13,336 nt of DNA from Chlamydiales bacterium (GTDB lineage Bacteria > Chlamydiota > Chlamydiia > Chlamydiales > JBDQID01): positions 1 through 13,336 of the forward strand of contig JBLFWS010000094.1 in NCBI GenBank assembly GCA_047611865.1, read 5' to 3'. Positions 81 to 13,336 of the stretch are shown here, piece by piece. Each line of letters begins with the position of its first letter. The stretch's first letter is position 1. The translations under genes and the position numbers were made by a program. The notes beneath the pieces were generated by a model. The model saw only the letters and a program-made list of their open reading frames with translations. It had not been told where the DNA came from and searched no databases.

Positions 81-2261
81 CTAAGAGTGCTCTGTGTGCT
101 TTTTTAGGAGGATTGTTTTTTCAGAAGAAATTGTGTATTTCCAGTGCCAGCTGGGTAGTATAAGTTTTTCTCGTTTGATCTGGAGATCTCCATCTTTTTC
201 GCTAACTACTAGACGTTCGCCGTTTTTGACTTCAAAAATATGGCTTCCATTGAAAGTAACATCGGAGGCATGAAATTCTGCATTACCATGTAGAATGATT
301 TGTAAGGCTTCATGTCTGGAAATATCATTTCTCCAGTAGGTATTTTTAGCTTGGGATTCAATACCCTCATTAATAATTCGAACGTTGTCAAGGGTACATT
401 TACCAGACTCTTCGCCATATTCTATGAGCATATCTTTATTTTTTTTGCCAAGTACATCTTGGCTTTTGATAAGAAGACTTCCGTCCAAAAACAACCTTTC
501 GATATCCAGCTCTGCAATTTCTAGCTGTAGCTCAGATCCGGAAGTTAGTCTTCCTCCGCGAATTTTTTGCCCGATGACGGAGTAGAGAGGCCCAAGAGCT
601 GGATGAAGAAAGCAGGTATAGTCGGGAGAATCATAACTAGTGGGGGCTGTGATTTTGCAGAAATTAGTGAGTAAGTCATGAATATTTTTCATTACGTCTG
701 TGTGACAGCCCTCTGGAGTTTCGAGTGGAGGGGAGTTTGGAGAATAGGAGCGTTTAGTACAGGATATCGTTTTGCATCTTTCATTGAAGGTTAAAAAGAT
801 TTTTTGCAATTTTCTTTTGCCTTCAGGGAGTGGGGTGGGGTAAGCATCGGAAATGTAATCGGAAATATTCTGCATGGTTGATTCAAGCCTGCCCGCCTTA
901 ATTTCTGAAACTTTTCCATCTGGAGCAATGTAGGGGGCTGTATTTTTCATATTGATTAGCATTCCTGGGATCGGATGCTCCTCAGCAGTTTTCTCCAGTG
1001 TTTTAAGATCTGCGAACAGAATGTTGGTGTTGGAGGGGAATCGGGAATACGTGGAGCCAGGAGTTACAGGAGAATCTTCGATATTTAATTTGGCAAAGTC
1101 AGTGTACTCTATATTGGAGATTGTATATTCATAGCCTTTGCCTGTTTTCGTTTCTTTGATGACGTTGACCCCCTCTGCAGCACCAACGGTTCGGTGGCAT
1201 GAAGCAAAACCAAAGTCCATATCTTCACTACAACCGATTCCAGTAAATGCTAAAAGCGTATGGTCTGTACCAGCGACGGGATTGTTGATCTGCCTGACAA
1301 GAGTTTTTTTTCTTTTATGTAATTGTAGCCATTCAAATATCAGGTTGTCTTTGGCAAATTTCCAGATGCTGCCATGGCCACCTGGTTTTAGATTTAAGGT
1401 AAGGGGTGCCAGCATGGACCAATTTCCCTCTTCATTAATTACCGGAACTGAGGATTGGGTAAAGAGCCGGAAGGAGTCTTTGTCTCTTCCGTACCAGTTA
1501 TTGGTTTCCAAGAGGGTAGTTATTCTACTGTGGTTGTGTTTTTCTAAAGAGGTCATGAGGGCAATAGGAGTTGCTAGCTGTTTGCCAAAGAGCTTGTAGT
1601 GCAGGTATTCTCGGGCTTGCAAATCACGAATCAATCCTTCAAGTAAGGTTCTACCTCCAAAGAGAAGCATCGCGGCGGGGAGGGGTTCTCCGGTTTGCTC
1701 GTCGGTAAGACCCAGTCTGTCTCCAGCTCCTCCCAAAGGATAGAGTTCCGCAATTTGAGGGAGTGTAGTGATGCCGTCGATAATAGCTTGCCGAACGATA
1801 TCAGTATCTTGTTGGCTTAGGTCCACTCCCTCAGGTTGGTAGAAATGAGACTCTTGAGAGGGTGATTGCTTGGGGCCCTTATGAGATTCCTGAATTAAAT
1901 TTAGGATAGTAGCGTGATACCCTACGATACCTCCAATAGAAGAATAAAATGTCTCGATCTTTAAAAGGGACTGAAGTAGAACACGTAAGCGCTCGAACTT
2001 GTCTTCAAGAACATCAGGGATGTTGAAAACGACAGGACCCTGTCCGATAGCAAGAATGGATTTAATGGCATATTCACATTCAGGAGAGAGTCCTGCAAGA
2101 AAGGTACGAAGAGGCGCTGATTTTTGAATCGCATTTTGAACAATAGTTAGTTGGTCAAGTAGTTCGAGTTTTTCTTCAAGAGAGTCTGCAGAGGTGAGTT
2201 TTTCAACAAGAGAGTTGCAAAAAGAGTTGTCGTTTTTTAGCGATATTTCAGAAGTATTCAT
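81..2261 (-). CDS. UTP--glucose-1-phosphate uridylyltransferase, UDPGP family, plant UGP3-like
   Basis: 726-aa ORF with nucleotide-binding loop YPLGGAGDRLGL, GRTLLEGLIRDLQAREYL, KPGGHG, RQINNP, NIEY and FPSNTNILF. These motifs match what I recall of plastid UGP3 and its chlamydial homologues. Confidence 0.85.
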   Translation of the reverse strand: MNTSEISLKNDNSFCNSLVEKLTSADSLEEKLELLDQLTIVQNAIQKSAPLRTFLAGLSPECEYAIKSILAIGQGPVVFNIPDVLEDKFERLRVLLQSLLKIETFYSSIGGIVGYHATILNLIQESHKGPKQSPSQESHFYQPEGVDLSQQDTDIVRQAIIDGITTLPQIAELYPLGGAGDRLGLTDEQTGEPLPAAMLLFGGRTLLEGLIRDLQAREYLHYKLFGKQLATPIALMTSLEKHNHSRITTLLETNNWYGRDKDSFRLFTQSSVPVINEEGNWSMLAPLTLNLKPGGHGSIWKFAKDNLIFEWLQLHKRKKTLVRQINNPVAGTDHTLLAFTGIGCSEDMDFGFASCHRTVGAAEGVNVIKETKTGKGYEYTISNIEYTDFAKLNIEDSPVTPGSTYSRFPSNTNILFADLKTLEKTAEEHPIPGMLINMKNTAPYIAPDGKVSEIKAGRLESTMQNISDYISDAYPTPLPEGKRKLQKIFLTFNERCKTISCTKRSYSPNSPPLETPEGCHTDVMKNIHDLLTNFCKITAPTSYDSPDYTCFLHPALGPLYSVIGQKIRGGRLTSGSELQLEIAELDIERLFLDGSLLIKSQDVLGKKNKDMLIEYGEESGKCTLDNVRIINEGIESQAKNTYWRNDISRHEALQIILHGNAEFHASDVTFNGSHIFEVKNGERLVVSEKDGDLQIKREKLILPSWHWKYTISSEKTILLKKHTEHS

Positions 2262-2610
2262 AATATGACCTGTATTAGCTTCTATGCAGCAAAATTTTAA
2301 TTGCGTTTCTCTTTACTTTCTTTTGCTAACGACGAGTGAAGGGATTCGGATTTAGACTGCCATTTACTACGGCTTTTCGGCAAGGTTATGTTGGGGATTC
2401 TTCTCTGATTTACTTGTAAAAATCTATTTTTCTAGCTGAAAAAGAAAAAGTATGATAACCGGAGGGACGGTATTGTGGGGAAATGTGATAAATCAGGCTT
2501 ACATAGACAATTTACTTTGACTATAAAAGCTCTTGAAAGATAAAACAATCCCTATTGAAACAACTATGTGATGCTAATATGCGCATCACAAACCTCAGAA
2601 GGAGTCAAAA

Positions 2611-2892
2611 ATGGCTGAAAAGAAAAAGAATACTGCGTTTATGAAGCCTGTTAATCTTAGCCCTGAACTCGAAGCAATCACCGGGCCTGGTCCAATGCCA
2701 CGTACTGAAGTGACAAAGAAGCTTTGGGAATACATTAAGAAGCATGACAGACAAGATCCAAAAAATAAGCGCAACATTGTTCCTGATGAAAAATTAGCTA
2801 AGTTGTTTGGTACCAAAAGTGCAGTTAACATGTTTAAAATGACAAGCCTAGTTAACAAGCACATGGAAGCTCAGCCAGCTGCTGCCAAGTAG
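2611..2892 (+). CDS. Stand-alone SWIB/MDM2 domain protein (CT460-like)
   Basis: AFMKPVNLSPELEAITG...PRTEVTKKLWEYIKKHDRQDPKNKRNIVPDEKLAKLFG is a typical SWIB domain. SD AAGGAG at 2599-2604. Confidence 0.93.
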   Translation: MAEKKKNTAFMKPVNLSPELEAITGPGPMPRTEVTKKLWEYIKKHDRQDPKNKRNIVPDEKLAKLFGTKSAVNMFKMTSLVNKHMEAQPAAAK

Positions 2893-2912
2893 TTCCTTGC
2901 TTATTTCGTTTT

Positions 2913-2952
2913 AAAAGGCCTTTCTGAAGAGTTTGTTTCGGAAGGCCTTTTT
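2913..2952 (+). terminator. Intrinsic terminator after the SWIB gene, probably bidirectional
   Basis: AAAAGGCCTT(TCTGAA)...(TTCGG)AAGGCCTTTTT inverted repeat with an A-tract before and a T-tract after, 20 bp downstream of the stop. Confidence 0.8.
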
Positions 2953-3108
2953 GTTTCTATATTATCTATGGTAATTATCTTTAAAAAGTGCTAAGATACA
3001 GTGATTTATTTAATTATCCTGTACGAGCAATTTCTTCTGTCTCTTATAAAATTTTTAATTTATATTGTTCCTTTTTAGGATGGAAATCTCTTTAGAAGAG
3101 TCATAACA

Positions 3109-4092
3109 TTGAAAAGAAAAATTTCTCATATACTCGCAGATGTTTTGTGGGATTTGTGGTGTGTGCTTTCCGTTATAGGTATATGGCCCCGCTTTATTGA
3201 ACCGCGCTTGGTGGTTACCACAAAAATGGACCTTGAAGTTAAGCAGCTTCCTAAAGATTTGGAAGGGTTTAAGGTTTTACAATTTAGCGATCTTCATTTT
3301 CATAAAAATGTGCCTCAAAGTTTTTTGGATAAGGTTGTGCGTAAGATCAAAGCTATGTCACCTGATATGATCGTATTTTCTGGGGATATGATTTGTTATT
3401 CCCGTCTAGAGGATGAGGTTCGCCTAACTGAGTTTCTTAATTTGCTGAAGGCTCCATATGGCAGCTACTTTGTTTTTGGTAATCACGACTATGAAAAATA
3501 CGTCAGCTTTACTGGAGAAGGGAAATACGACGTAGTGGAGAAGAAACAGAATTCTTTTATTATTGAAGGTTTTAGAAAAATGTTTAATCCCCGAAAGGAA
3601 ATTCGAGGGATCGGCGAGGAAGCCCGCTTGACGAATAGGCATGCTGGACTCTGCACTTTATTGGGAAAAACGCCGTTTGAGATTCTTGAAAATCAGACAA
3701 AAAAAATTAAGGTAGGTAGTACTTGTCTCAATGTCTCAGGTCTTGGAGATTATTGGCTGGGTAGGTGTGATCCGTCCATTACATTTGAAACCTATGACAA
3801 AAACTATCCTGGACTCGTACTTTCCCATAACCCCGATACTTTTACTCAATTACAGGAATGGCCTGGAGAAATGGTATTATGCGGGCATACTCATGGTGGA
3901 CAAGTAAACCTGCCTTTTTTGTGGAACAAATTCATCTATATAGAAAATATGAAGTTTGTCCGAGGCTTGGTACAAATAGGTGATAAAAAGCTCTACGTTA
4001 ACAGAGGGCTTGGAAGTCACAGGCCCTTTCGATGGTTTTCTCCACCTGAATTGTTGCTACTTACTCTAAAAAATCAAAAGGCAGATTGCTAA
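3109..4092 (+). CDS. lpxG: Calcineurin-like metallophosphoesterase, probable UDP-2,3-diacylglucosamine hydrolase (LpxG/CT461-like)
   Basis: Motifs SDLH, GD, GNHD, SHNPD and GHTHGGQ, with an N-terminal hydrophobic anchor (LWDLWCVLSVIGIWPRFIEP). It lies between SWIB and ispD as in Chlamydia. TTG start. The gene symbol rests partly on synteny. Confidence 0.78.
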   Translation: MKRKISHILADVLWDLWCVLSVIGIWPRFIEPRLVVTTKMDLEVKQLPKDLEGFKVLQFSDLHFHKNVPQSFLDKVVRKIKAMSPDMIVFSGDMICYSRLEDEVRLTEFLNLLKAPYGSYFVFGNHDYEKYVSFTGEGKYDVVEKKQNSFIIEGFRKMFNPRKEIRGIGEEARLTNRHAGLCTLLGKTPFEILENQTKKIKVGSTCLNVSGLGDYWLGRCDPSITFETYDKNYPGLVLSHNPDTFTQLQEWPGEMVLCGHTHGGQVNLPFLWNKFIYIENMKFVRGLVQIGDKKLYVNRGLGSHRPFRWFSPPELLLLTLKNQKADC

Positions 4093-4766
4093 TGAGTGTT
4101 GCGGTTATTTTACTCGCTGGGGGAAAAGGTCTGCGTATGGCTTCATCTACTCCCAAGCAATATTTACCTTTGAAAGGAAAGACTGTTTCTGAACACAGCT
4201 ATGATCTTTTTTTAACGATGGAAGAAGTTCAGGAAATAGTGGTGGTATGTGCAACTGATCGCAGAAAAGTTTTTGATCGTGCAGGAGGCCAGAAAAGAGT
4301 GACTTTTGCACAGCCTGGTGAAAGGAGGCAAGATTCTGTGTTTAATGGGCTACAGAAGATTTCTGAGGGAATAGATTATATATGTATTCATGATTCTGCA
4401 AGGCCGTGTTTGAATGAAGAATTAGTGCGTGATGTGATAAGTGCTGGAAAAGAGTACGGGGCAGCAGCATTGGGACTTCCCGTTAAGTATACCGTAAAAG
4501 AAACAGAAGCCTCCGGTTTAGTTAAGAGAACTTTGAAGAGAGAGAATATTTGGGAAGTGCAAACCCCACAAGTGCTTTCTCTAGAGTTGTTGAAAAAGGG
4601 GTTTTTGAAAGCTTTGTTGGAGAATTTAACTGTGACGGATGATGTTTCATTGGCAGAATTACTTGGTTCTGCAGTTAAGCTAGTTAAAGGTTCTTCGAAA
4701 AATATCAAAATCACTACACCCGATGATCTAGTAGTGGTAGAGAGCCTTCTTGAGTGTGAGAGATAG
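4092..4766 (+). CDS. ispD: 2-C-methyl-D-erythritol 4-phosphate cytidylyltransferase
   Basis: LLAGGKGLRM, PKQY, RQDSV, IHDSARP, QTPQ, TDD and NIKITTPDDL. Start moved to the ATG at 4092, which overlaps the upstream stop (TAATG). Confidence 0.93.
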   Translation: MSVAVILLAGGKGLRMASSTPKQYLPLKGKTVSEHSYDLFLTMEEVQEIVVVCATDRRKVFDRAGGQKRVTFAQPGERRQDSVFNGLQKISEGIDYICIHDSARPCLNEELVRDVISAGKEYGAAALGLPVKYTVKETEASGLVKRTLKRENIWEVQTPQVLSLELLKKGFLKALLENLTVTDDVSLAELLGSAVKLVKGSSKNIKITTPDDLVVVESLLECER

Positions 4767-4768
4767 TA

Positions 4769-5518
4769 ATGAAGTTTAAACTAACTATAGCTTACGACGG
4801 TACAGCATACAGTGGGTGGCAGGTTCAACCAAATGCGTTGACGATTCAAGAGTTGTTGGAAAATGCTTTGAAGATACTGCTACGGCAGGAGGTGAGAGTA
4901 ATTGGGGCAGGGCGTACTGATGCCGGAGTACACGCGCGAGCGCAAGTGGCTCATTTTATCGCTGATCAAAATCTAGATGTCTCTTTAATTTTGGCAAGCG
5001 TAAATGGGATACTCCCAAACGATGTAACAGTCCTTGATCTAGAAGAGGTGTCGGATGAGTTTCATGCGAGGTTTGGAGCAAAAAGAAAAATTTATCATTA
5101 TCACCTTTCTCTGAATCGCTTTCAAGATCCTTTCCGGAGACGGTACAGTCATCATGTTCGCCATAGGCTGGATGTGGATCTTTTACGTGAAGCTGCAAGG
5201 GAGTTTGTAGGAACTCATAATTTTAGGTCGTTTGCTAATGAGGCCTATGCAGGAAGTGCAGCAAAAAATCCTATCAGAACTCTGAGTAGATTAGATGTAG
5301 TGGAAGAGCCGGATGGCTTTATTCGCCTTGAATTTGAAGGGGAAAGTTTTCTCTACAAAATGGTACGCAATATTACAGGTACGCTTTTAGAAGTGGCTAG
5401 CGGAAAACGGCCTGTAACAGAGATTCGTGAAATAATGGAAGCCAAAGACAGGAGGCGTGCTGGTCGGGCTGCGCCAGCACTGGGGCTATTTATGGTTTCG
5501 ATTCATTACGCAACGTGA
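4769..5518 (+). CDS. truA: tRNA pseudouridine(38-40) synthase
   Basis: YDGTAYSGWQ, GRTDAGVHA (catalytic Asp), FHARF, FLYKMVRNITG and APALGL. Confidence 0.96.
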   Translation: MKFKLTIAYDGTAYSGWQVQPNALTIQELLENALKILLRQEVRVIGAGRTDAGVHARAQVAHFIADQNLDVSLILASVNGILPNDVTVLDLEEVSDEFHARFGAKRKIYHYHLSLNRFQDPFRRRYSHHVRHRLDVDLLREAAREFVGTHNFRSFANEAYAGSAAKNPIRTLSRLDVVEEPDGFIRLEFEGESFLYKMVRNITGTLLEVASGKRPVTEIREIMEAKDRRRAGRAAPALGLFMVSIHYAT

Positions 5519-6189
5519 TTGATAAGAAAGTCGCTTAACTTGTCGTAGAGCGCTGTATTGCCCTCCAGAATGGACTCCATGTTGTCGTAGCGAATGTCCG
5601 TAACTAAGATGGCTTTTGCTTGAGTGGCTTTGAGGGCGCTAAGACCTCTTGGAGAATCTTCGAAACCGATGATACGGTCATTTTCATTGGCCATTTCTTT
5701 TATAGCTATCTCATAACATTCAGGATCAGGTTTAGGCTTAGAATAATTCTCTCTTGTAAACCAGACGGGGATGCTATCGAGGAGGGGGTTTTGCTTACGA
5801 ATATTCTCAATTTGTTCTAAAGGGGAATGGGTGACGACACACCTTTTGCGGCCAGCATCTTGTAAAGCCAACAAAAACTCTTCGGCACCTGGCATTAGCT
5901 TTACAGCTCCTTCGTTCAGAAGTTTCATATAAGCATCTTTCTTTTCTTGATAAAGAACAGTCCAGTCGGGTTCCATTTTGTAGAGATCGGGAAATTCTGC
6001 ATAAATTTGATCGCGTAGCCCTGTGGACTCAAAGTGAGCAGCTTTACAATAGCGTTGGAAATCCCAGGTTAGATAAAAGCCTCGACGTTTGCACATTTGA
6101 TTATAGGCTTCACGGTGTAGTTGTTCTGTATTAACAAGGAGACCATCGAAGTCGAGTAGAAATAGGTCGTATTCTTGAATCATGCTCAT
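5506..6189 (-). CDS. HAD-superfamily phosphatase (CT464-like)
   Basis: Motif I DFDGLLVNTE, motif II VVTHS, KPKPDP and motif IV FEDSPRG. Convergent 13-bp overlap with truA. The start could be 6189 or 6183. Confidence 0.9.
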   Translation of the reverse strand: MSMIQEYDLFLLDFDGLLVNTEQLHREAYNQMCKRRGFYLTWDFQRYCKAAHFESTGLRDQIYAEFPDLYKMEPDWTVLYQEKKDAYMKLLNEGAVKLMPGAEEFLLALQDAGRKRCVVTHSPLEQIENIRKQNPLLDSIPVWFTRENYSKPKPDPECYEIAIKEMANENDRIIGFEDSPRGLSALKATQAKAILVTDIRYDNMESILEGNTALYDKLSDFLINHVA

Positions 6190-6288
6190 GCCTCTTCCTC
6201 TTTATGAAAAAACGAGTATAATAGCAGGACAAGGGGCTGATTGCCACGCTTTATTTTTGTTTTGTTAAGGTATGGAAGGGTTGTATTC

Positions 6289-7131
6289 ATGGGCATTTAT
6301 TTCAAGAGTGTCTTAAAGTTATTTATTTTTATTTTGTTTCTAAGCTCCTGTTCAGGGGGGGATCTACCAGGAATAGACAGTAGCCGTAAACAAAATGAAA
6401 AAGGGGAGTTTCTCTATCGGGAGTCCGATGAATTTTTGCATAGATTGTCTCCGCCTGAACTTCGGCAAATAGAGAAGTATCCTTGGGAGGGGAAGATGGT
6501 TGGTAACTTCCCACGGATTACGAAAGAGTTCTTCCGTTGCAAGGGGAGCTCTCTTAATCCATTGAGGGTCGAGGTGAAGGAGGATGGCGAGCTGGTGAAA
6601 TATGAGGATTGTAATGGTAGGCATAGTCTACCTCTTCATGACAGCAAGGAATTTATTTACCCCATTCTTCATGAGTTACTAAATCATGTGCAGAAGAAAA
6701 CAGGAAAGCGAGTGGTGGTCACAAGTGGGCATAGCTGTCCTAAACACAATTCGTATAGGGATCCATCTAAATATAACAGAACTTCCAAGCATATGATCGG
6801 TGCAGAGGTAGCTTTTTACCTTCAGGGAATGGAGGGGCAGCCTGAAGAGGTTGTAGAGTTGCTACGTTCGTTTTACAGTGAATCATCCTCCTATAAAGAT
6901 AAAGGGGAGTATCAGGAGTTTTCAACGTATGACGGACCAATAGATGTCCTATCTATCCCAGTGCGGAACAAGGAAGTATATATAAAGATTTTCAACAAAG
7001 AAGAGGGGCGTGACTTTGACAACCGCCATCCCTATCCTTATATCAGTGTACAGGTGCGCCATGATCGCGAGGAAGATAAAGGAGTTTTTTACACGTGGAA
7101 CAAAGCTTATAATCACTATTTTAGATATTAG
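6289..7131 (+). CDS. Conserved chlamydial hypothetical lipoprotein (CT465-like) with a degenerate peptidase-M15-like motif
   Basis: ATG 6289 follows GGAAGG and gives MGIYFKSVLKLFIFILFLSSC (signal peptide plus lipobox). Internal TSGHSCPKHN...SKHMIGAEVAF resembles M15 TSGYRCxxHN...SxHxxGxAxD. The ORF track's TTG start at 6241 is less likely. Confidence 0.7.
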   Translation: MGIYFKSVLKLFIFILFLSSCSGGDLPGIDSSRKQNEKGEFLYRESDEFLHRLSPPELRQIEKYPWEGKMVGNFPRITKEFFRCKGSSLNPLRVEVKEDGELVKYEDCNGRHSLPLHDSKEFIYPILHELLNHVQKKTGKRVVVTSGHSCPKHNSYRDPSKYNRTSKHMIGAEVAFYLQGMEGQPEEVVELLRSFYSESSSYKDKGEYQEFSTYDGPIDVLSIPVRNKEVYIKIFNKEEGRDFDNRHPYPYISVQVRHDREEDKGVFYTWNKAYNHYFRY

Positions 7132-8840
7132 GTAAAATACTGTGCAATAGGATTTTCCTTTCGAAAAAAGCATTCCTGGATTATAGTAGTGCTTCTTATT
7201 ATGCCGAAGTGGCGAAATGGTAGACGCGGTAGATTCAAAATCTGCTTCCGTTCGCGGAGTGCCGGTTCGAGTCCGGCCTTCGGCACATCACCGGAGACTT
7301 TTTCAGAAATGATTGAGTTCTCCGGTCTTTCTTTTTTTAAGTCCTTGTTTTTCTGTAAGATAAGAGCGAGTGCTGAGTTTAAGGCATCGGTTCGATATTT
7401 CCCGTCCTCAAAAGTCAGCTTAAGTGGGAAAACCGAACCAAGTAATTTTTTCTTTATTTCTAAAGAAGCTTTATCAAAGTAGTGGTCAAGATTCGCCAGG
7501 ATGTTCATTCCGAACGTGCAGTATTTCTCGAAGGCAGTGTCGGAGGCTGTGAGCTCCTGGATGGTCTGCTCATTTGTTGCGATTTCTGACAAGGTGTGAC
7601 TCTTAAGCCTTTTGTACGAATCCGCTTCTAAAGATTCTTCGACAAATCTTTGCTGATCGAACTTGAGAAGGTTTGCATTGTGTCCATGTATGAGATTTTG
7701 CAGCTTTTGGATTTGTTCCTCGCGGCAGCCTTCTTTGGCTTCGAATAACTTTTTCATCATTGCGAGGTAAAGCTCGACTACTTCTGGTGGGGACTGCAAG
7801 CCTTTTAGGAAGTCCCTGAAGGCATCATTAGCTTCAGAAGCATTTGCCCTTGCCTTACATCTATTGTCACAGTGGTAGTAGGCATATTTGCCTCCGTTGC
7901 CCCTGGAAATACTGCCGGTCCAATTTTTTTTACATTTAGGGCATAGGAGGAGCCCACGGAGAGGGAATTCTTCCCTGAGCTTTTCTTTTGTGGAAATGTG
8001 GGAATTTCTTTCTGCACGGCTATTGAGGATTTTTTGAACTCTGTAGAAGGTATCTTGGAATACTATGCCTTTGTGAATTCCTTCTACAAGTTGGCTTGGC
8101 TCATCTTTGGTTTCCGGAACAAAGATTTTACCCATATAGATTGGGTTTCGCAGCATCAATCCGAACTGAGTTCTTTGTAGACGAAGGCCCGTTTTCCAAG
8201 AAGCCTTACGAACGTCTTCGATAGCGAAGGCATTTGTAGCGAAAAGTTCGAAGGCCTCTTTGACAAGTTCCGCTTCTTCACTGTGTACAAGTAATGGTGT
8301 TTTCGATGAGCTTCGGTCTTTCTTGAACCCTTTAGGAGTTTGTCCGTACGGATAGTGGCCTTCTTTGAGAGCACGGTAGACTCCTGCCTTAGTATTACGA
8401 GCTCTGATCCTATTGTCGATTTCGGGAAGGGTCATGTGGATCATTTTGAGAAGAAGGCTTTCAGGATTGTCTGAGTCATCCTGAAAGTCAATTGACTTAA
8501 CTTCCGTACCGTATTGCTGGAGCTCCCTGCACATCATGATGGAGTTTTCTACATTGCGTGAGAACCGGCACCATTTGGTAACAAACAGATAGTCGACTTG
8601 TTTTTTGTGTCTTTGGAGATACGAGATGAGGCGTCGAAAGTTGGGGCGTTTGAAATCTTTAGCACTGAAGCCGTCATCTTCGAAATGTTCGATGACTTGG
8701 ATTCCTTGTCTGGCACATTCCTTTCGTAGGGTGTCTTCTTGATGGGGCAGGCTGAAACCTTGTTCAGCCTGTTCATCCGTTGATACTCTAGTATAGATTA
8801 CGGCAGTTTTCCGAATCTTTTTCTTGCTGAATGATTTCAT
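7128..8840 (-). CDS. Large serine recombinase/integrase (resolvase + recombinase + Zn-ribbon + coiled coil)
   Basis: IYTRVSTDEQ (catalytic Ser20 from ATG 8840), GFSAKDFKRP, KWCRFSRN, recombinase domain (PKGF...EEAELVKEAFELF...LRNPIYMG...HKGIV) and Zn ribbon (FPLRGLLLCPKC...YYHCDNRC). The ORF continues antisense through the tRNA and stops at 7128-7130. Confidence 0.93.
   Translation of the reverse strand: MKSFSKKKIRKTAVIYTRVSTDEQAEQGFSLPHQEDTLRKECARQGIQVIEHFEDDGFSAKDFKRPNFRRLISYLQRHKKQVDYLFVTKWCRFSRNVENSIMMCRELQQYGTEVKSIDFQDDSDNPESLLLKMIHMTLPEIDNRIRARNTKAGVYRALKEGHYPYGQTPKGFKKDRSSSKTPLLVHSEEAELVKEAFELFATNAFAIEDVRKASWKTGLRLQRTQFGLMLRNPIYMGKIFVPETKDEPSQLVEGIHKGIVFQDTFYRVQKILNSRAERNSHISTKEKLREEFPLRGLLLCPKCKKNWTGSISRGNGGKYAYYHCDNRCKARANASEANDAFRDFLKGLQSPPEVVELYLAMMKKLFEAKEGCREEQIQKLQNLIHGHNANLLKFDQQRFVEESLEADSYKRLKSHTLSEIATNEQTIQELTASDTAFEKYCTFGMNILANLDHYFDKASLEIKKKLLGSVFPLKLTFEDGKYRTDALNSALALILQKNKDLKKERPENSIISEKVSGDVPKAGLEPALRERKQILNLPRLPFRHFGIIRSTTIIQECFFRKENPIAQYFT
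7203..7285 (+). tRNA. tRNA-Leu(CAA)
   Basis: Acceptor GCCGAAG/CTTCGGC with discriminator A, D-arm GCGAAATGGTAGACGC, anticodon arm GTAGA-TTCAAAA-TCTGC, long variable arm TCCG-TTCG-CGGA and T-arm GCCGG-TTCGAGT-CCGGC. CCA is not encoded (followed by CAT). Confidence 0.97.
7290..7338 (+). terminator. Hairpin plus T-tract directly after the tRNA, inside the recombinase CDS on the opposite strand
   Basis: ACCGGAGA (7290-7297) pairs with TCTCCGGT (7319-7326), with an inner TCA-GAAA-TGA stem-loop, followed by CTTTCTTTTTTT. Confidence 0.65.
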
Positions 8841-8952
8841 ATTCAATGTTACAAATCTCTTCTAAATATTTTTTGATGACCTTTACTTCTGCCAAATTAT
8901 ACTGTTTATCTCCGGAGTTGAGAATCTCCATTGCGGACTTTTCAGAAAGCAT
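8788..8952 (-). CDS. Small 54-aa protein overlapping the recombinase start (not in the ORF track)
   Basis: Manual translation: MLSEKSAMEILNSGDKQYNLAEVKVIKKYLEEICNIEYEIIQQEKDSENCRNLY*. ATG at 8952 is preceded by GAGGTGGCA (SD), and TAG is at 8788-8790. It overlaps the recombinase ATG frame by 53 nt. Confidence 0.7.
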   Translation of the reverse strand: MLSEKSAMEILNSGDKQYNLAEVKVIKKYLEEICNIEYEIIQQEKDSENCRNLY

Positions 8953-8954
8953 TG

Positions 8955-9041
8955 CCACCTCATGTGAGGTAGAAGACCCCGAACAAGGTCTTTGCTCGTC
9001 GTCTTAGGTGCTTATGTTGCGATGTTCAACCGCAGATTATA
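8955..9041 (-). promoter_or_regulatory. Putative -10 box and structured 5' leader of the small-ORF/recombinase unit
   Basis: TATAAT on the minus strand (9041-9036) with no clear -35. It is followed by hairpins UGCGGU/AUCGCA (9034-9018), AAGACCUU-GUUC-GGGGUCUU (8992-8973) and CUACCUC-ACAU-GAGGUGG (8972-8955); the last contains the SD. Confidence 0.5.
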
Positions 9042-9053
9042 TTGTATAAAGCC

Positions 9054-9938
9054 TTAAGCATTGTTATTTATGTATTTTGAAACAGTTCGTTTTTTTGCAA
9101 CAACCCGGCCTTTCTTGATGTTGCTTTCGAGCTTTACATCATCGTAGTTAGTTGTGAGATCGTAATCAGAAATTGAGGCATCATTGAAATATTTAATCAT
9201 TTTCAGTTGGGATAGTCCATCTGCTGAAGTTTTGTAGACGACCAGTTGATCAAAATCTTCATTTTTGATGGCATCTACAACTTCATTTTCTTTTATGGAA
9301 ATGGAACGGGTGAGAGGTGGTTCAGCTTGGATGTCTCTTTCTAAGGTTTCATTCAGGAGGTTGTTTATATTTATAGAAATGTGGTTTAGGCATCCTGTTA
9401 TATAAGGGACTTCAATTGCCGGAATAAATTCGTTAAAGCTTAAGAATTCAGCCTGACCTTCAGGGAGAACGATAAAGTAGACTGGTTGTTTGAAAAGGAT
9501 TGCAGCAATGAAGTAATACTCGACAAAAGAGATACGGCACTTTTTTGAGATTTCTTCAAAATAGAATGGTTTGAGCTTTCCTATTGTCTCCAATGAAATT
9601 CCAAACTTTCTCAGATCTCGAATAATTTTTAACCATATACATTCGGTGACATTAAATTTTCGCCACCCTCGATTTCCCTCACGCTCACATTCGATAAGAC
9701 CTAGAGAATCCCAATGGTTCAAGACTCGTGAAGAGGTGTCACTTGGGCTTATTTTTAGGTTTCGTTTTCGAAGGTTGTCAACTAGGCGAAGTGATAATTC
9801 AGAATCTAAGATTTTTGAAAGGTTGAGGGAGAAGGTTTCTCCACGAAAGAGTGTAGGGCCTACGCTTTTACGGTTTAAAGGGTTGGGGGCTCTCTTCTTG
9901 TCTTTTAGTGAGCTTTCTGTGGTGGTAATTTTTGGCAT
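9054..9938 (-). CDS. MerR-like winged-HTH DNA-binding protein with an uncharacterised C-terminal region
   Basis: SSRVLNHWDSLGLI...GWRKFNVTECIWLKIIRDLRKFGISLETIGKL is a MerR-type HTH pattern. The ATG at 9938 has SD AAGAGGT and is preferred over the track's TTG at 9956. Confidence 0.75.
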   Translation of the reverse strand: MPKITTTESSLKDKKRAPNPLNRKSVGPTLFRGETFSLNLSKILDSELSLRLVDNLRKRNLKISPSDTSSRVLNHWDSLGLIECEREGNRGWRKFNVTECIWLKIIRDLRKFGISLETIGKLKPFYFEEISKKCRISFVEYYFIAAILFKQPVYFIVLPEGQAEFLSFNEFIPAIEVPYITGCLNHISININNLLNETLERDIQAEPPLTRSISIKENEVVDAIKNEDFDQLVVYKTSADGLSQLKMIKYFNDASISDYDLTTNYDDVKLESNIKKGRVVAKKRTVSKYINNNA

Positions 9939-9955
9939 TTGAACCTCTTTTTGCA

Positions 9956-9981
9956 AAAAACTTACATTTATGTAAGTTTTT
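9956..9981. promoter_or_regulatory. Perfect 12-bp inverted repeat, candidate operator
   Basis: AAAAACTTACAT-TT-ATGTAAGTTTTT, 17 bp upstream of the MerR-like ATG in a divergent intergenic region. Confidence 0.6.
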
Positions 9982-10210
9982 GGGAAAGGAATCTTTCTGA
10001 AAAGGTTTTTTGTGGTGTAGAAGTTGGTAAAATTCTAGTAAGGAAGTGGTAGGGTCTTTTCGTGAGTTAAAGAGTCTTCAGCTTCTTCGAAGAAAGTTTT
10101 TACTGTTCCTGTATGGTACTCGATGCTTTGCACCTCTTGATCTAACTTTTTCTGTGGTTTTAACTTTAATTACTAAAATGTAAATGTAGAGAGGTACAAG
10201 GAGGTAGAGC

Positions 10211-10870
10211 ATGCTATGGGAAACGAGAAGTAAAGCAGAAAAAGAGTTTAGGGAAGATTTAAAAGAGGTTTATGAAGCTCTTTCAGATGGAGTTTCGTTG
10301 TTGGATAAAGCAATTGATGAATTTGAGAGGTCTTCAGACAAGGATTTGTTTTTTCGCTTGTGTGCATTAATTTCTCTTAAATCTAAGAACTTAGTTTTGG
10401 CCTTGCTATCCCTTATAATGGAGGGGCTGGCTCAAGAGGGAGGGGCAATACTACGTCCGCTTGTAGAGTGTACAGAGATGTTAGCATATCTTCGTTTACA
10501 TTTTGATAACCTAGATGAAGTAGCCGAAAAGATTATGAACAGGAAGATTACTGCAGGAAAAATTGGAAAGGAAATTGAAGGAGACTTTAAGGACTTAAGG
10601 AAGTATTTGAATGAGAATGCATCACACCTTAGCTTGTCTTATGATAGTTTGAGACACTGTCTTGATATGAAGACTCTGAAACTAAATAAGGTTCAAAAAT
10701 TTAACAAAAAAACTTTTCTGAAGAACTTGGAACTACTCTTTTCGTTTTTAACTTTTTTATTAAAAGAGTGTTCAAATTGTCTGGAAAAATATGGTAAGGG
10801 GGACATTTTGAAAATGCGAAAAGTTGTTATGAATAAAGGAATTGAAGCTATAAGAAGTATAGATAAATGA
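10211..10870 (+). CDS. Hypothetical all-helical protein, possibly DUF5677/HEPN-like
   Basis: 219 aa with a strong SD (AAGGAGGT, 10198-10205). The patterns G..QEGGAILRPLVE......Y and RKYLNENASH recall DUF5677-type proteins. The family call is tentative. Confidence 0.55.
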   Translation: MLWETRSKAEKEFREDLKEVYEALSDGVSLLDKAIDEFERSSDKDLFFRLCALISLKSKNLVLALLSLIMEGLAQEGGAILRPLVECTEMLAYLRLHFDNLDEVAEKIMNRKITAGKIGKEIEGDFKDLRKYLNENASHLSLSYDSLRHCLDMKTLKLNKVQKFNKKTFLKNLELLFSFLTFLLKECSNCLEKYGKGDILKMRKVVMNKGIEAIRSIDK

Positions 10871-10891
10871 GCTAACAACGTTGAGGGTTCT

Positions 10892-12130
10892 ATGGAAGTT
10901 GGGATTGAAAGAGGAGAAGAGACTGACAAGATTTTTGTAGTACTACTGTCTTTCGAGTTAAAGATACTGAAAAATGATTTGTTGGGCGTAGAAGGTGTTT
11001 TCAATTGGGTTAGCGATATATTTAGTCAAATCGGAGCTTCTTTCAATACTAATAGAACAGAAGACAACGGTAAAATCATATTATTTTACGACATCCCGAA
11101 AATTGAGGGGACTTATGACAAAATTGAAATGAGGGGAAAAAAACTGAAAGAGAAGATTGAAAACTGTAAGATTAGAATGTTTTCTACTTGGGATAGTACC
11201 ATATGGAAACGTTCTGGAGCGATACCTGAGGAGGATGAAGATCATGTTGATCGAATCACTAGCCAGGAGGATTACAGAGACCGTGAAACAAGAGAAAGTG
11301 CGCTTGATGAAATATTCGAAGAATTCAAAACTTGTTTCAAAGAAATTAACGATAGGTTTCCAGATCAACGTATTGAAAAAGATGATACAGAGATTTCAGT
11401 GGAATTAGATCCAAACCTTGTGGATCAGATTCAGCAGTTTGAAGGTTTGTTAGGCAATGCTTGGCTAGAAAAAAGTGAGGAAAGTGGTGAAAAGGGTAAT
11501 CCGTTACCTGATTATTTGAAACGAATTGATGTGCAAAAGTTTTATGAGCTTTTGCTAGAAAATAAAGGAGATACAAGGGAAATACACGAATCTTTGATTC
11601 ACACCCTTTTTGATATCAAAATGCAGCTATTTTTTATCCTTGAAGTGGAAATGCGTAGTTATAATCGAATACTTCAAGAAATTAAATCGTTAGCGGACCT
11701 AAAAAAGAAGCCCTATTTGGCATTAAGGAAGCTCTCTATAGATCAAAGCTTAATAGTGAAAAACCGGATTCTTTGGGAACGAGTAATGAACTTTGTTTAC
11801 TGCTTGGGAAATGAAGTGAAAGAATTTAAGGTAAGTAAAGGGGGGTCAAAACTTGGTAAATTTTTTGAAAAAATTAAGGGAACAAGGTGGGAATTTTTGA
11901 AATTCTATAAGTCATTGGCTGAGAATTTGAATAACAGATGGAGAACAGGTGAGGTTCACAAGGGTTCTGTTTTGAGAGGCATCTTTATTAGAGGGAGAGT
12001 TGCAGATTTTTATGAAATTAACGAGATTACCAATGTTGTCCTCGCAGTTCTTTGGCCTAATTTACTCCTAATTCTGCAAGGAGGAAATCCTCAAATACCT
12101 TATGTGTCGACTTCAGGGTATCGCAGGTAA
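10892..12130 (+). CDS. Hypothetical protein with a C-terminal HEPN-like domain
   Basis: 412 aa with SD-like GAGGG at 10883-10887. The helical C-terminal half has RILWERVMNFVY and an R-x4-H motif, RTGEVH (11942-11959). Confidence 0.6.
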   Translation: MEVGIERGEETDKIFVVLLSFELKILKNDLLGVEGVFNWVSDIFSQIGASFNTNRTEDNGKIILFYDIPKIEGTYDKIEMRGKKLKEKIENCKIRMFSTWDSTIWKRSGAIPEEDEDHVDRITSQEDYRDRETRESALDEIFEEFKTCFKEINDRFPDQRIEKDDTEISVELDPNLVDQIQQFEGLLGNAWLEKSEESGEKGNPLPDYLKRIDVQKFYELLLENKGDTREIHESLIHTLFDIKMQLFFILEVEMRSYNRILQEIKSLADLKKKPYLALRKLSIDQSLIVKNRILWERVMNFVYCLGNEVKEFKVSKGGSKLGKFFEKIKGTRWEFLKFYKSLAENLNNRWRTGEVHKGSVLRGIFIRGRVADFYEINEITNVVLAVLWPNLLLILQGGNPQIPYVSTSGYRR

Positions 12131-12170
12131 AAGTTTTTAGAAATTCATCGGGCTTTTATAAGTTGTAGAC

Positions 12171-12270
12171 TTGCAGGCCTGACCCCCGTGTGACTCCAGT
12201 GACTCAACAGGTCGTAATTCCCGTAAAATTCACGGAATTCCCGGGAAATGATTACGGGTGACAGTAATTA
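12171..12270. repeat. Cluster of short degenerate direct and inverted repeats between convergent cargo genes
   Basis: TGACCC/TGACTC/TGACTC at 12180, 12191 and 12200. AATTCCCG/AATTCACG/AATTCCCG at 12216, 12227 and 12236. Palindrome TTCCCGGGAA at 12238-12247. Inverted pair CCCGTAA (12220-12226) / TTACGGG (12252-12258). Confidence 0.55.
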
Positions 12271-12302
12271 AAGTGTTGAATTTCGTTGAACATGTGCAAT
12301 TT

Positions 12303-13336
12303 CTAGCGTTTCATGTAAGCAGTTTTTTTAGGAAAAAAGGGATCTTCTGGGCAAACAGCGAAGCTAACGATAATGTCTGGTTTAAGGTCTTTTGCTTTTT
12401 CGTCTAGGTAGAAAAGAAGGTGCTTTTCAACATTTTCTAGAGGCATATCATTGACACAGACGGCCATTAGAAGTTTGTTTTCCTTCATGATTGACACTAC
12501 TCTTGCTTGTTCAGGTTCTAATTGTGTGGTTTTAAATTCCAAGAGCTTTTTATGTAGTTGATGGAGAGCATCTAGGCCAAATTGGACCAGTTCCGTTGCT
12601 ATGAAGTGGCAGATAGGGTCTTCGTCTGATTTTAAGCTGCTTATAATATTTTGAATGCCAATGGGTAAATTCAGTTTAGCTTTTTGATTTTCTTCATTAA
12701 AAGAATTTTGGAAATCGTCGATTAGAATCAAATTACCTTCATCATGTAATTCCCCATCAAAAAGTCCCAAATTCCAAGAGTCAAAGAAATCCAATTCATC
12801 TGTTGTATGAATGTGAGCAGGAGAGCAAACGAGATTAGATTTTTCTATTAAATAGGAAAGAAGTATTTCAGGCTGCTTATGACATCGCTCTAGAATAATT
12901 TCGAAGTCAAATATATTACTTATAATGGGGTAGTCTGTTTCGCGGATAACTCCAAATTTTTTCAAAGGTGAAACGTCGCAGATTAGAGAATGCAGAGGCT
13001 TTAATGTAATAGCCAGAAGTATGATGCGCAATGGTTTATCGATTTCAATATTATTTGTACCAGTTTCACTTTTAATGGAAAAAATTGGTTTTTCTGAATT
13101 TGTGAAATACTTTTCGGCTCTTTCTCCTTGTCTCCAAGCCTCACGAATTACTTTTGTTAGATGCTTGCGTATTCTTTTTTTGTTGGGTTTGGTAGATTCC
13201 GAATTTTTTAGTTTCAGAGCAATTGAGTTCCAGTCAATTTGACCAGCCTTTGCTTCAGTACATATTAAGGTGTTCCCCCAATGGATTAGAACATCGAGCT
13301 CCGCAGTACTATTTGGTTTTTCAGGGTCAGGATATG
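12303..13336 (-). CDS. NERD/PD-(D/E)xK nuclease-like protein, 5' end beyond the window
   Basis: The frame stays open from the track's 13031 start to the window edge: YPDPEKPNSTAELDVLIHWGNTLICTEAKAGQ...IREAWRQGERAEKYF...IILLAITL...DELDFF. ELD...EAK plus a downstream Q...Y helix is the NERD-type pattern. Confidence 0.7.
   Translation of the reverse strand, partial: YPDPEKPNSTAELDVLIHWGNTLICTEAKAGQIDWNSIALKLKNSESTKPNKKRIRKHLTKVIREAWRQGERAEKYFTNSEKPIFSIKSETGTNNIEIDKPLRIILLAITLKPLHSLICDVSPLKKFGVIRETDYPIISNIFDFEIILERCHKQPEILLSYLIEKSNLVCSPAHIHTTDELDFFDSWNLGLFDGELHDEGNLILIDDFQNSFNEENQKAKLNLPIGIQNIISSLKSDEDPICHFIATELVQFGLDALHQLHKKLLEFKTTQLEPEQARVVSIMKENKLLMAVCVNDMPLENVEKHLLFYLDEKAKDLKPDIIVSFAVCPEDPFFPKKTAYMKR

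Follow-up and report, generated by a model that had tools for sequence, protein, structure and literature searches.

A conserved small gene at the start codon of large serine integrases associated with tRNA genes: a candidate directionality or accessory factor

Results

The small gene and the integrase at the locus

A 54-codon open reading frame (ORF) that overlaps the start of a large serine recombinase (LSR, hereafter the integrase) was analysed in DNA from a Chlamydiales bacterium (GenBank assembly GCA_047611865.1, contig JBLFWS010000094.1). The window is the whole stretch of 13,336 nucleotides (nt), to which all coordinates refer. An earlier sequence-only reading had proposed that the ORF encodes a recombination directionality factor (RDF) or another partner protein of the recombinase, or that it couples integrase translation. 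The features from which the argument starts are the following.

8788..8952, minus strand: small gene, 54 codons plus TAG (ORF reading, tblastn, profile members, dN/dS ratios, AlphaFold2)
8955..8961, minus strand: Shine-Dalgarno (SD)-like GAGGTGG, read from the sequence ahead of the small-gene ATG
8788..8840, minus strand: 53 nt shared by the 3' end of the small gene and the 5' end of the integrase gene, read in different frames
7128..8840, minus strand: large serine recombinase (integrase), 570 amino acids (aa) (Pfam, PDB profiles, AlphaFold2)

The small gene runs on the minus strand from an ATG at 8952-8950 to a TAG at 8790-8788. An in-frame GTG at 8958 would yield a product of 56 aa; the ATG at 8952 was preferred because the first three residues that it gives, M-L-S, are common to many relatives. 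The spacing from GAGG to this ATG is 5 nt. Three claims of the sequence-only reading held when checked against the coordinates: a 54-codon ORF preceded by an SD is present, it ends 53 nt inside the recombinase gene, and the recombinase ATG at 8840 is poorly served by any SD of its own, no GGAGG-like motif being found within 15 nt upstream. The integrase ATG is made from the codons for Tyr38 and Glu39 (TAT-G), which belong to a conserved I-E-Y-E motif of the small protein. The window holds 73 ORFs of at least 40 aa, and an ORF of this size is unremarkable when taken alone.

Conservation of the small gene across integrase relatives

To place the small gene among relatives, a comparison set was used of 79 genomic loci (L001-L079) encoding integrase relatives at 31-61% identity. 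In tblastn searches the peptide matched just upstream of, or overlapping, integrase starts, with 44% identity across all 54 residues in L001 (Verrucomicrobiota; E 2e-11), 37% in L010 (Parachlamydiales; E 3e-7) and 35% in L002 (E 1e-4), and with weaker matches at the same position in many loci from Bacteroidota. When the 13,652 six-frame ORFs of at least 25 codons in the 79 loci and the window were searched with an iterated profile, the search converged at 72 ORFs, every one upstream of an LSR and on the LSR strand, and none on the opposite strand or downstream of the integrase. Sixty-seven of the 72 terminate within a range of -62 to +143 nt from the integrase ATG, and three further members (L058, L066 and L068) overlap the first of tandem LSR genes by 4-11 nt; 70 members in all abut or overlap an LSR start, and the remaining two stand 208 and 333 nt ahead of it. 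Judged by record titles, the majority of members come from Bacteroidota, with others from Verrucomicrobiota, Parachlamydiales, Planctomycetota and a few further groups; loci titled with a named strain include L003 (Parafilimonas terrae DSM 28286), L008 and L036 (Flavivirga amylovorans KACC 14157) and L052 (Tamlana fucoidanivorans CW2-9). The sequence-only reading had pointed to similar small ORFs ahead of such recombinases in other phyla, and in this it was right; tblastn was the check that it had named for a conserved position. A word-index protein search with the peptide alone recovered only the query, which reflects a limit of sensitivity and not an absence of relatives, since the tblastn and profile searches found them.

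The tandem LSR gene pairs lie at L058:2127-5632, L066:1841-5743 and L068:2081-5665 and are reminiscent of paired recombinases. At these loci the small gene precedes the first LSR only and a tRNA gene follows the second LSR only.

Selection was examined outside the overlap with the integrase. Five pairs with dS below 0.5 gave dN/dS values of 0.29, 0.50, 0.21, 0.08 and 0.13, all under the value of 1 that the sequence-only reading had set; more distant pairs are saturated and uninformative. Across the 41-codon core all 71 aligned members keep the sense frame open, as they must by construction, and the remaining five frames are open in only 1-11 of the 71 loci. An overlapping alternative gene is therefore not the source of the conservation, and a conserved antisense or other-frame gene was rejected as a candidate. 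Past approximately position 41, relatives differ in the length of the tail, whose residues mirror an alternative frame of the conserved integrase N terminus, so that this part of the small protein is probably not functional.

Taken with the fold described below, the conserved position and purifying selection strongly support the reality of the gene. The small frame is a genuine, widely conserved, unnamed gene that accompanies this type of integrase in several phyla, and by the gene order at these loci it appears to be a near-obligate upstream operon partner of one LSR clade that presumably targets tRNA genes.

Fold and family membership of the small protein

An alignment of 71 family members (A2) shows conserved columns of approximately C-K-K-I-L-N-x-N-G-x-x-Y-[TS]-D-E-E followed by a helix, in which the conserved columns are mostly hydrophobic (I26, R27, F29, L30, Y31, L33, A34, I36, D37, Y38 and F41). 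The conserved core of the window's protein comprises residues 1-41. AlphaFold2, run with A2, gave a model with a mean predicted local distance difference test score (pLDDT) of 90.4 and a predicted template modelling score of 0.61, in which residues 1-3 are coil and a helix at 4-11 is joined by an 8-residue loop to a helix at 20-51, with no strand, helix-turn-helix (HTH) or wing; the two helices guessed from the sequence were thus reproduced. As modelled, the family fold is a core of approximately 45 residues in which a Gly-containing loop joins a short helix to a long amphipathic one. Two familiar types of small regulator were rejected. An excisionase of the Xis winged-helix type (MerR-like HTH) does not agree with a model of two helices only, and no excisionase is among the listed Pfam matches; a ribbon-helix-helix (RHH) regulator would have an N-terminal strand, which the model lacks, and no RHH family is among those matches.

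Relatives of the protein are numerous and carry no informative names. A profile search of 1.84 billion cluster representatives returned 2,767 proteins at E <= 1e-3, 340 of them at E <= 1e-10, with lengths of 46-143 aa among the 150 matches listed of the 2,767. In the annotated collection, 71 matches had no precomputed Pfam domain, and the only names given were "hypothetical" or "uncharacterized". When the 71 members were scanned, matches to Pfam were scattered and sub-threshold (at most 5 of 71 members for any family, best E 0.0014), as were those to NCBIfam (at most 2 of 71) and PHROGs (at most 4 of 71), and no excisionase, HTH, RHH or EF-hand family was among the listed Pfam matches. Foldseek returned zero PDB matches at E <= 0.001 (best E 2.2), its non-significant matches (E 2.2-8.7) including archaeal histone-like and basic helix-loop-helix (bHLH) DNA binders. 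In the ESM Atlas the best score, 0.79, was to unnamed "hypothetical protein" clusters and fell under the level that the tool treats as a lead. Searches for domain fusions found no informative Pfam domain in 16 longer family matches (106-143 aa) and no copy of the small domain inside integrase homologues of at least 300 aa (0 of 120). The family was found undescribed in the full-text literature searched.

A PDB profile search with A2 gave non-significant matches in residues 9-37 of the profile, mostly to EF-hand proteins (best E 0.022) such as troponin C, myosin light chain and centrin. The small protein shares with these a helix-Gly loop-helix topology, but its loop is shorter and, by column counts, lacks the Asp/Asn/Glu pattern of calcium ligands; when G15 is set at loop position 6, position 1 falls on the hydrophobic column I10. 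For an unpaired unit of EF-hand-like shape, pairing with a partner helix or a second copy would be expected.

The integrase and its presumed tRNA target

The integrase carries the Pfam domains Resolvase (PF00239, 2.8e-29), Recombinase (PF07508, 1.7e-8) and Zn_ribbon_recom (PF13408, 6.8e-6), and its matches to solved structures include the TP901-1 catalytic domain (4.5e-14) and the A118 C-terminal structure (4.6e-8). Integrase homologues were collected, and 31 of them were aligned with the window enzyme (A1, 32 sequences). Ser20, in a Y-T-R-V-S-T motif, is invariant in all 32 sequences, as is proper to a resolvase domain with a serine nucleophile, and the further domains of an LSR are all present: a first DNA-binding domain (DBD1), a zinc-ribbon second one (DBD2) and a coiled-coil insertion. 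In the AlphaFold2 model the coiled coil appears as long paired helices at residues 352-432, between the zinc-ribbon strands and the second part of DBD2, and residues 498-570 have pLDDT below 50 and are modelled as disordered. M1 of the integrase aligns with M1 of all 31 homologues, which identifies ATG 8840 as the true start. The best NCBIfam match of the integrase was XisF, at 90 bits against a cut-off of 375. Its nearest relatives are from Verrucomicrobiota and Parachlamydiales; no close relatives were found in phage (359) or plasmid (223) records, all of which fell below 60% identity, and identity to the listed phage and plasmid records was at most 27%.

One further feature lies at the other end of the integrase gene.

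7203..7286, plus strand: tRNA-Leu(CAA), the presumed integration target on the attL side (tRNA call)

The integrase gene, on the opposite strand, contains the whole of this tRNA gene in its 3' end. The integrase ORF has no stop before the attachment (att) site and continues antisense across the whole of tRNA-Leu and 75 nt beyond, residues ~519-570 being encoded antisense to, and past, the tRNA gene. As the frame reads through the att site into the tRNA gene, the integrase tail must differ between the integrated and the excised state. The same arrangement recurs among relatives: at 63 of the 79 loci an opposite-strand tRNA gene lies at, or immediately beyond, the 3' end of the integrase gene, with specificities that include Arg, Leu, Asn, Met, Pro, Lys, His, Glu, Asp, Phe and Val. 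The C termini of the homologues share a G-L-E-P-A-type motif, which we infer to be the antisense translation of the tRNA T-arm, in agreement with the coordinates in the window. Judged by these gene positions, the integrases appear to form a clade targeting tRNA genes. A tRNA-derived repeat was not found within 7000-13336, and the far end of the element (attR) lies outside the window. Serine integrases that target tRNA genes were found undescribed in the full-text literature searched, and the term "tRNA" has 0 occurrences in the main text of Durrant et al. (PMC10083194).

Junctions, expression and coupling

Junctions between the small gene and the integrase gene were classified in the 72 family members; the classes are approximate, as integrase starts in relatives were picked heuristically. 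Overlaps of at least 8 nt (8-143 nt) number 32 and overlaps of 1 or 4 nt number 12; the other junctions are gaps, 26 of them of 0-62 nt and 2 longer than 200 nt. Fusion of the two products by a programmed frameshift was rejected, because 28 of the 72 junctions are gaps, in which the small ORF stops ahead of the integrase ATG, and no fused form was found among the 120 integrase homologues. Among relatives the SD of the small gene also varies, with AAGGAG in L049 and none in L010.

Promoters were sought with a sigma-70 scan, which is not valid for Bacteroidota promoters. One sigma-70-like site was noted inside the small gene of the window (8896-8924, minus strand; TTCTCA, 17 nt, TATAAT; 10 of 12 positions), 55 nt before the integrase ATG. 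Of the 10 relatives scanned, L001 and L004 have weaker sites of 8 of 12 positions and the remaining eight have none. In this region 3 promoter-like sites were found against 3.2 expected from shuffles, and an integrase-only promoter within the small gene, analogous to lambda pI, was rejected because the count is at chance and the site is unconserved in the 10 relatives. No RNA structure masking the integrase start was found in the window (z = +1.09). With no conserved internal integrase promoter and an unstructured integrase start, the small gene and the integrase gene are most simply read as one operon.

These results also bear on the possibility that the ORF serves as a leader only, the act of translation and not the product setting integrase translation by coupling or occlusion. 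The window is suited to such a role, its integrase ATG lacking an SD and lying inside a small ORF that has one, and among relatives the 12 overlaps of 1 or 4 nt are typical of coupling and the 26 short gaps fit it as well. Set against this, the sequence and fold of the peptide are conserved across phyla under purifying selection (dN/dS 0.08-0.50), terminating ribosomes at the 32 longer overlaps would stop well past the integrase ATG, and the integrase start has no stable RNA structure. The amino acid conservation, the highly variable junctions and the unstructured start together make a pure translational coupler unlikely; the junctions range from a 143-nt overlap to a 62-nt gap, with two loci beyond 200 nt. 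A leader without a functional product is judged highly improbable, although coupling may be a secondary role of the small gene.

One element upstream of the small gene was recorded as a lead only.

8957..8970, minus strand: palindrome or hairpin containing the small-gene SD (sequence and leader folding)

The palindrome, ACCTCA-CA-TGAGGT, puts the SD in the stem of a predicted 7-bp hairpin. The 124-nt leader (8930-9053, minus strand) folds with z = -2.47, and 2 of 200 shuffles fold equally well. As predicted, this palindrome could be an operator or a translational control element.

Flanking genes

Directly upstream of the small gene lies one further conserved gene.

9054..9956, minus strand: gene for a MerR-type HTH protein of approximately 300 aa (MerR_1, 1.2e-8)

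A homologue of this protein (~280-330 aa) is encoded directly upstream of the small gene in 21 of the 79 loci as well as in the window, giving a three-gene module of which it is the first gene (for example L001:2958-3782 and L010:2936-3790); the protein has a MerR_1 HTH and no assigned domain in its C-terminal two-thirds. In the remaining loci the pair of small gene and integrase persists without it. The MerR-type protein is an alternative candidate for a regulator or an excision factor.

Three ORFs of the island in 10211-13334 (219 aa, 412 aa and one of at least 343 aa that runs off the window edge) had no Pfam match at the cut-off and nothing at E <= 0.01 in NCBIfam or PADLOC. In relatives the flanking cargo includes AbiE, type I restriction-modification, methylases, RloB, conjugative TraM and RteC, the counterparts of these three ORFs being defence genes such as AbiE, type I restriction-modification and methylases. 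Genes for IspD, TruA, a metallophosphoesterase, a HAD hydrolase, a UGP3-like protein and a SWIB/MDM2-domain protein (2611-2892) lie in the host flank (81-7131), as does a lipoprotein-like ORF that weakly matches M15 peptidases. The bacterial SWIB protein and the nearest relatives of the integrase, from Verrucomicrobiota and Parachlamydiales, suggest a host of the Planctomycetes-Verrucomicrobia-Chlamydiae (PVC) group.

Evidence linking the small protein to the integrase

Binding was examined by co-folding the small protein (with A2) and integrase residues 1-530 (with A1). Three runs scored 0.57, 0.54 and 0.53 (median 0.54), agreeing in at least 96% of contacts with a partner pLDDT of at least 72, and all three controls scored 0.00; the verdict of the tool was "weak support". 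The pass mark is reached by 116 of 157 solved complexes and by 2 of 215 mismatched pairs, and scores at or below 0.60 belong to only 18 of the 157 solved complexes and to both of the passing mismatches. Of the sequence-only reading's proposal of a partner protein, a dedicated partner of the recombinase is strongly supported by position, selection and fold, and for binding to the integrase the co-fold it had suggested as a check gave the median of 0.54 against a best control of 0.00. Direct binding is, on this model, weakly supported.

Co-variation was measured across 63 loci, with integrase domain limits checked against the AlphaFold2 model. Distances between small proteins correlated with those of the integrase coiled coil (Spearman 0.46), DBD1 (0.37) and zinc domain (0.30), and less with those of the catalytic domain (0.14). 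In partial Mantel tests the values were 0.38, 0.24, 0.19 and -0.09, respectively, and were reached by 0, 0, 0 and 462 of 499 permutations. The distance pattern fits an RDF-like contact with the coiled coil, as far as sequence distances can indicate, though it is confounded.

The net charge of the core was negative in 39, neutral in 8 and positive in 24 of the 71 members, with a median of -1, and the window's small protein is acidic. This pattern does not favour a dedicated DNA binder.

Discussion

Proposed role of the small protein

The reading proposed here is that the small protein is an accessory subunit of the integrase. In this scheme, the small protein and the integrase would be made from the same transcript, with the integrase at the lower level, since in the window the small gene has its own SD and the integrase start, inside the small gene, has none. 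The small protein would bind the C-terminal DNA-binding and coiled-coil part of the integrase and, once bound, would modulate which pair of att sites can synapse, as an RDF-like accessory subunit. Published RDFs of LSRs are described as binding at the junction of DBD2 and the coiled coil, and some may be all-helical (PMC12286644). This reading is the most likely of those considered, the chances that the small protein is an integrase-bound subunit acting on the coiled-coil and DBD2 part being about even. That it is an RDF in the strict sense is a more tentative proposal; like an RDF it is encoded on the same mobile element as its integrase, the gene being adjacent to an LSR in the window and in 70 of the 72 members. 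The widest form of the proposal, put forward with similar caution, is that the family may be the first conserved, syntenic family of directionality or accessory factors for LSRs, a helix-loop-helix of approximately 45 residues that would clamp the integrase coiled coil in thousands of tRNA-targeting islands of Bacteroidota and the PVC group, and that may act jointly with the integrase C-terminal tail, which changes with the state of integration.

Several points weigh against this proposal. The main difficulty is one of expression: an integrase-only promoter conserved within the small gene was not found, the 10-of-12 site being present in the window only, and an RDF that is always co-transcribed with its integrase would be expected to hinder integration. 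The known RDFs of LSRs are without synteny with their integrase genes (PMC12286644). The co-fold gave no interface, and its pass falls in a band that the tool rates as more often wrong than right unless the pair is likely beforehand. The Mantel pattern is confounded by the linkage of all the genes and by unequal rates of evolution, the fast regions carrying more signal than the slow catalytic domain. The positive core of 24 of the 71 members leaves room for DNA binding. Eight of the 79 loci gave no profile match (L020, L023, L028, L030, L031, L038, L065 and L075); five of these have, at the same place, a small ORF with a partial motif judged by eye only, and the contig of L075 starts 167 nt ahead of the integrase. 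Finally, no similarity was found to TP901-1 Xis or A118 gp44 (hhalign probability 0.07, 1 aligned column each). This last point is not disqualifying, since the known RDFs lack sequence conservation and are unrelated to one another (PMC12286644).

Other explanations

The explanation that comes closest to the accessory-subunit reading is that of a small DNA-binding or regulatory protein, either an autoregulator of the operon or an architectural excisionase bound at att DNA, which would act on DNA and not on the integrase. A small gene overlapping an integrase start is the classical lambda-like xis-int layout, a palindrome overlaps the SD upstream of the gene, the core is net positive in a third of the members (24 of 71), and the best of the non-significant fold matches include archaeal histone-like and bHLH binders. 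Against these stand a model of two helices and an 8-residue loop with no HTH, wing or N-terminal strand, Pfam matches that include no excisionase, HTH or RHH family and reach at most 5 of 71 members each, a median core charge of -1 with an acidic protein in the window, and the statement that LSRs need no architectural cofactors (PMC12286644). A DNA-binding role is considered unlikely on these grounds.

Also rather improbable is some other function of the island, such as maintenance, transfer or immunity, or a partnership with the MerR-type protein, adjacency to the integrase then reflecting a shared end module. The MerR-type gene that directly precedes the small gene in the window and in 21 of 79 loci, the varied cargo (AbiE, type I restriction-modification, methylases, conjugative TraM and RteC) and a homology search that yields no function all allow for this. 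The small gene nevertheless keeps its place at an LSR start in 70 of 72 cases, irrespective of the gene upstream, approximately 50 loci have the small gene but no MerR-type gene, the small gene directly precedes an LSR at the tandem loci too, and the co-fold and Mantel signals point to the integrase. Last, a chance origin of the ORF, or an artefact arising from conserved DNA at the 5' end of the integrase gene, might have been suggested by the 73 window ORFs of at least 40 aa, the word-index search that recovered only its query and the constraint of the integrase frame on the last 17 codons. This explanation is effectively refuted already: the conserved core lies ahead of the integrase start, the profile recovered 72 homologous ORFs and the database 2,767 relatives, dN/dS is below 1 outside the overlap, and the other frames are closed.

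Comparison with known systems

Set beside the RDFs of LSRs, of which A118 gp44 (72 aa) and TP901-1 Xis/ORF7 (64 aa) have sizes known from annotated records, the small protein is likewise encoded by the element and without a catalytic motif, is made of helices alone, as is predicted for some known RDFs (PMC12286644), and shows a weak predicted contact with the integrase and co-variation with its coiled-coil region. It differs in that the family is conserved across phyla and fixed at the integrase start in 70 of 72 cases, whereas the known RDFs are neither (PMC12286644).

Two other systems offer partial parallels. In the xis-int arrangement of lambda and other elements with tyrosine integrases, a small gene overlaps the integrase start on the same strand, and the element sits in a tRNA gene. 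The small gene described here is likewise immediately upstream of its integrase, on the same strand and overlapping its start, in an element that lies in a tRNA gene; however, the recombinase is a serine and not a tyrosine enzyme, the small protein has no winged-helix DNA-binding fold, and no conserved internal integrase promoter was found. Anabaena XisF is a large serine recombinase with adjacent small accessory genes, xisH and xisI, that control excision, and it resembles the present case in having such a gene beside an LSR. XisH and XisI are larger, are encoded downstream and belong to their own Pfam families, whereas no such match is among the Pfam families listed for the 71 members.

Implications

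The cofactor that reverses a serine integrase is a recognised bottleneck for reversible genetic switches (PMC12286644). As the same small gene stands at the integrase start codon, a candidate RDF is known in advance for every member of this clade, and the RDF question can be tested directly with standard att-site reporter assays. An unannotated family is added to the catalogue, and genes of fewer than 60 codons that overlap integrase starts should not be filtered out. Integrases that end inside tRNA genes are themselves unusual for serine enzymes. If the small protein does prove to be a directionality factor, it would overturn the view of serine-integrase RDFs as lacking sequence conservation or synteny, and the clade would supply a large set of integrase and cofactor modules that come ready-paired.

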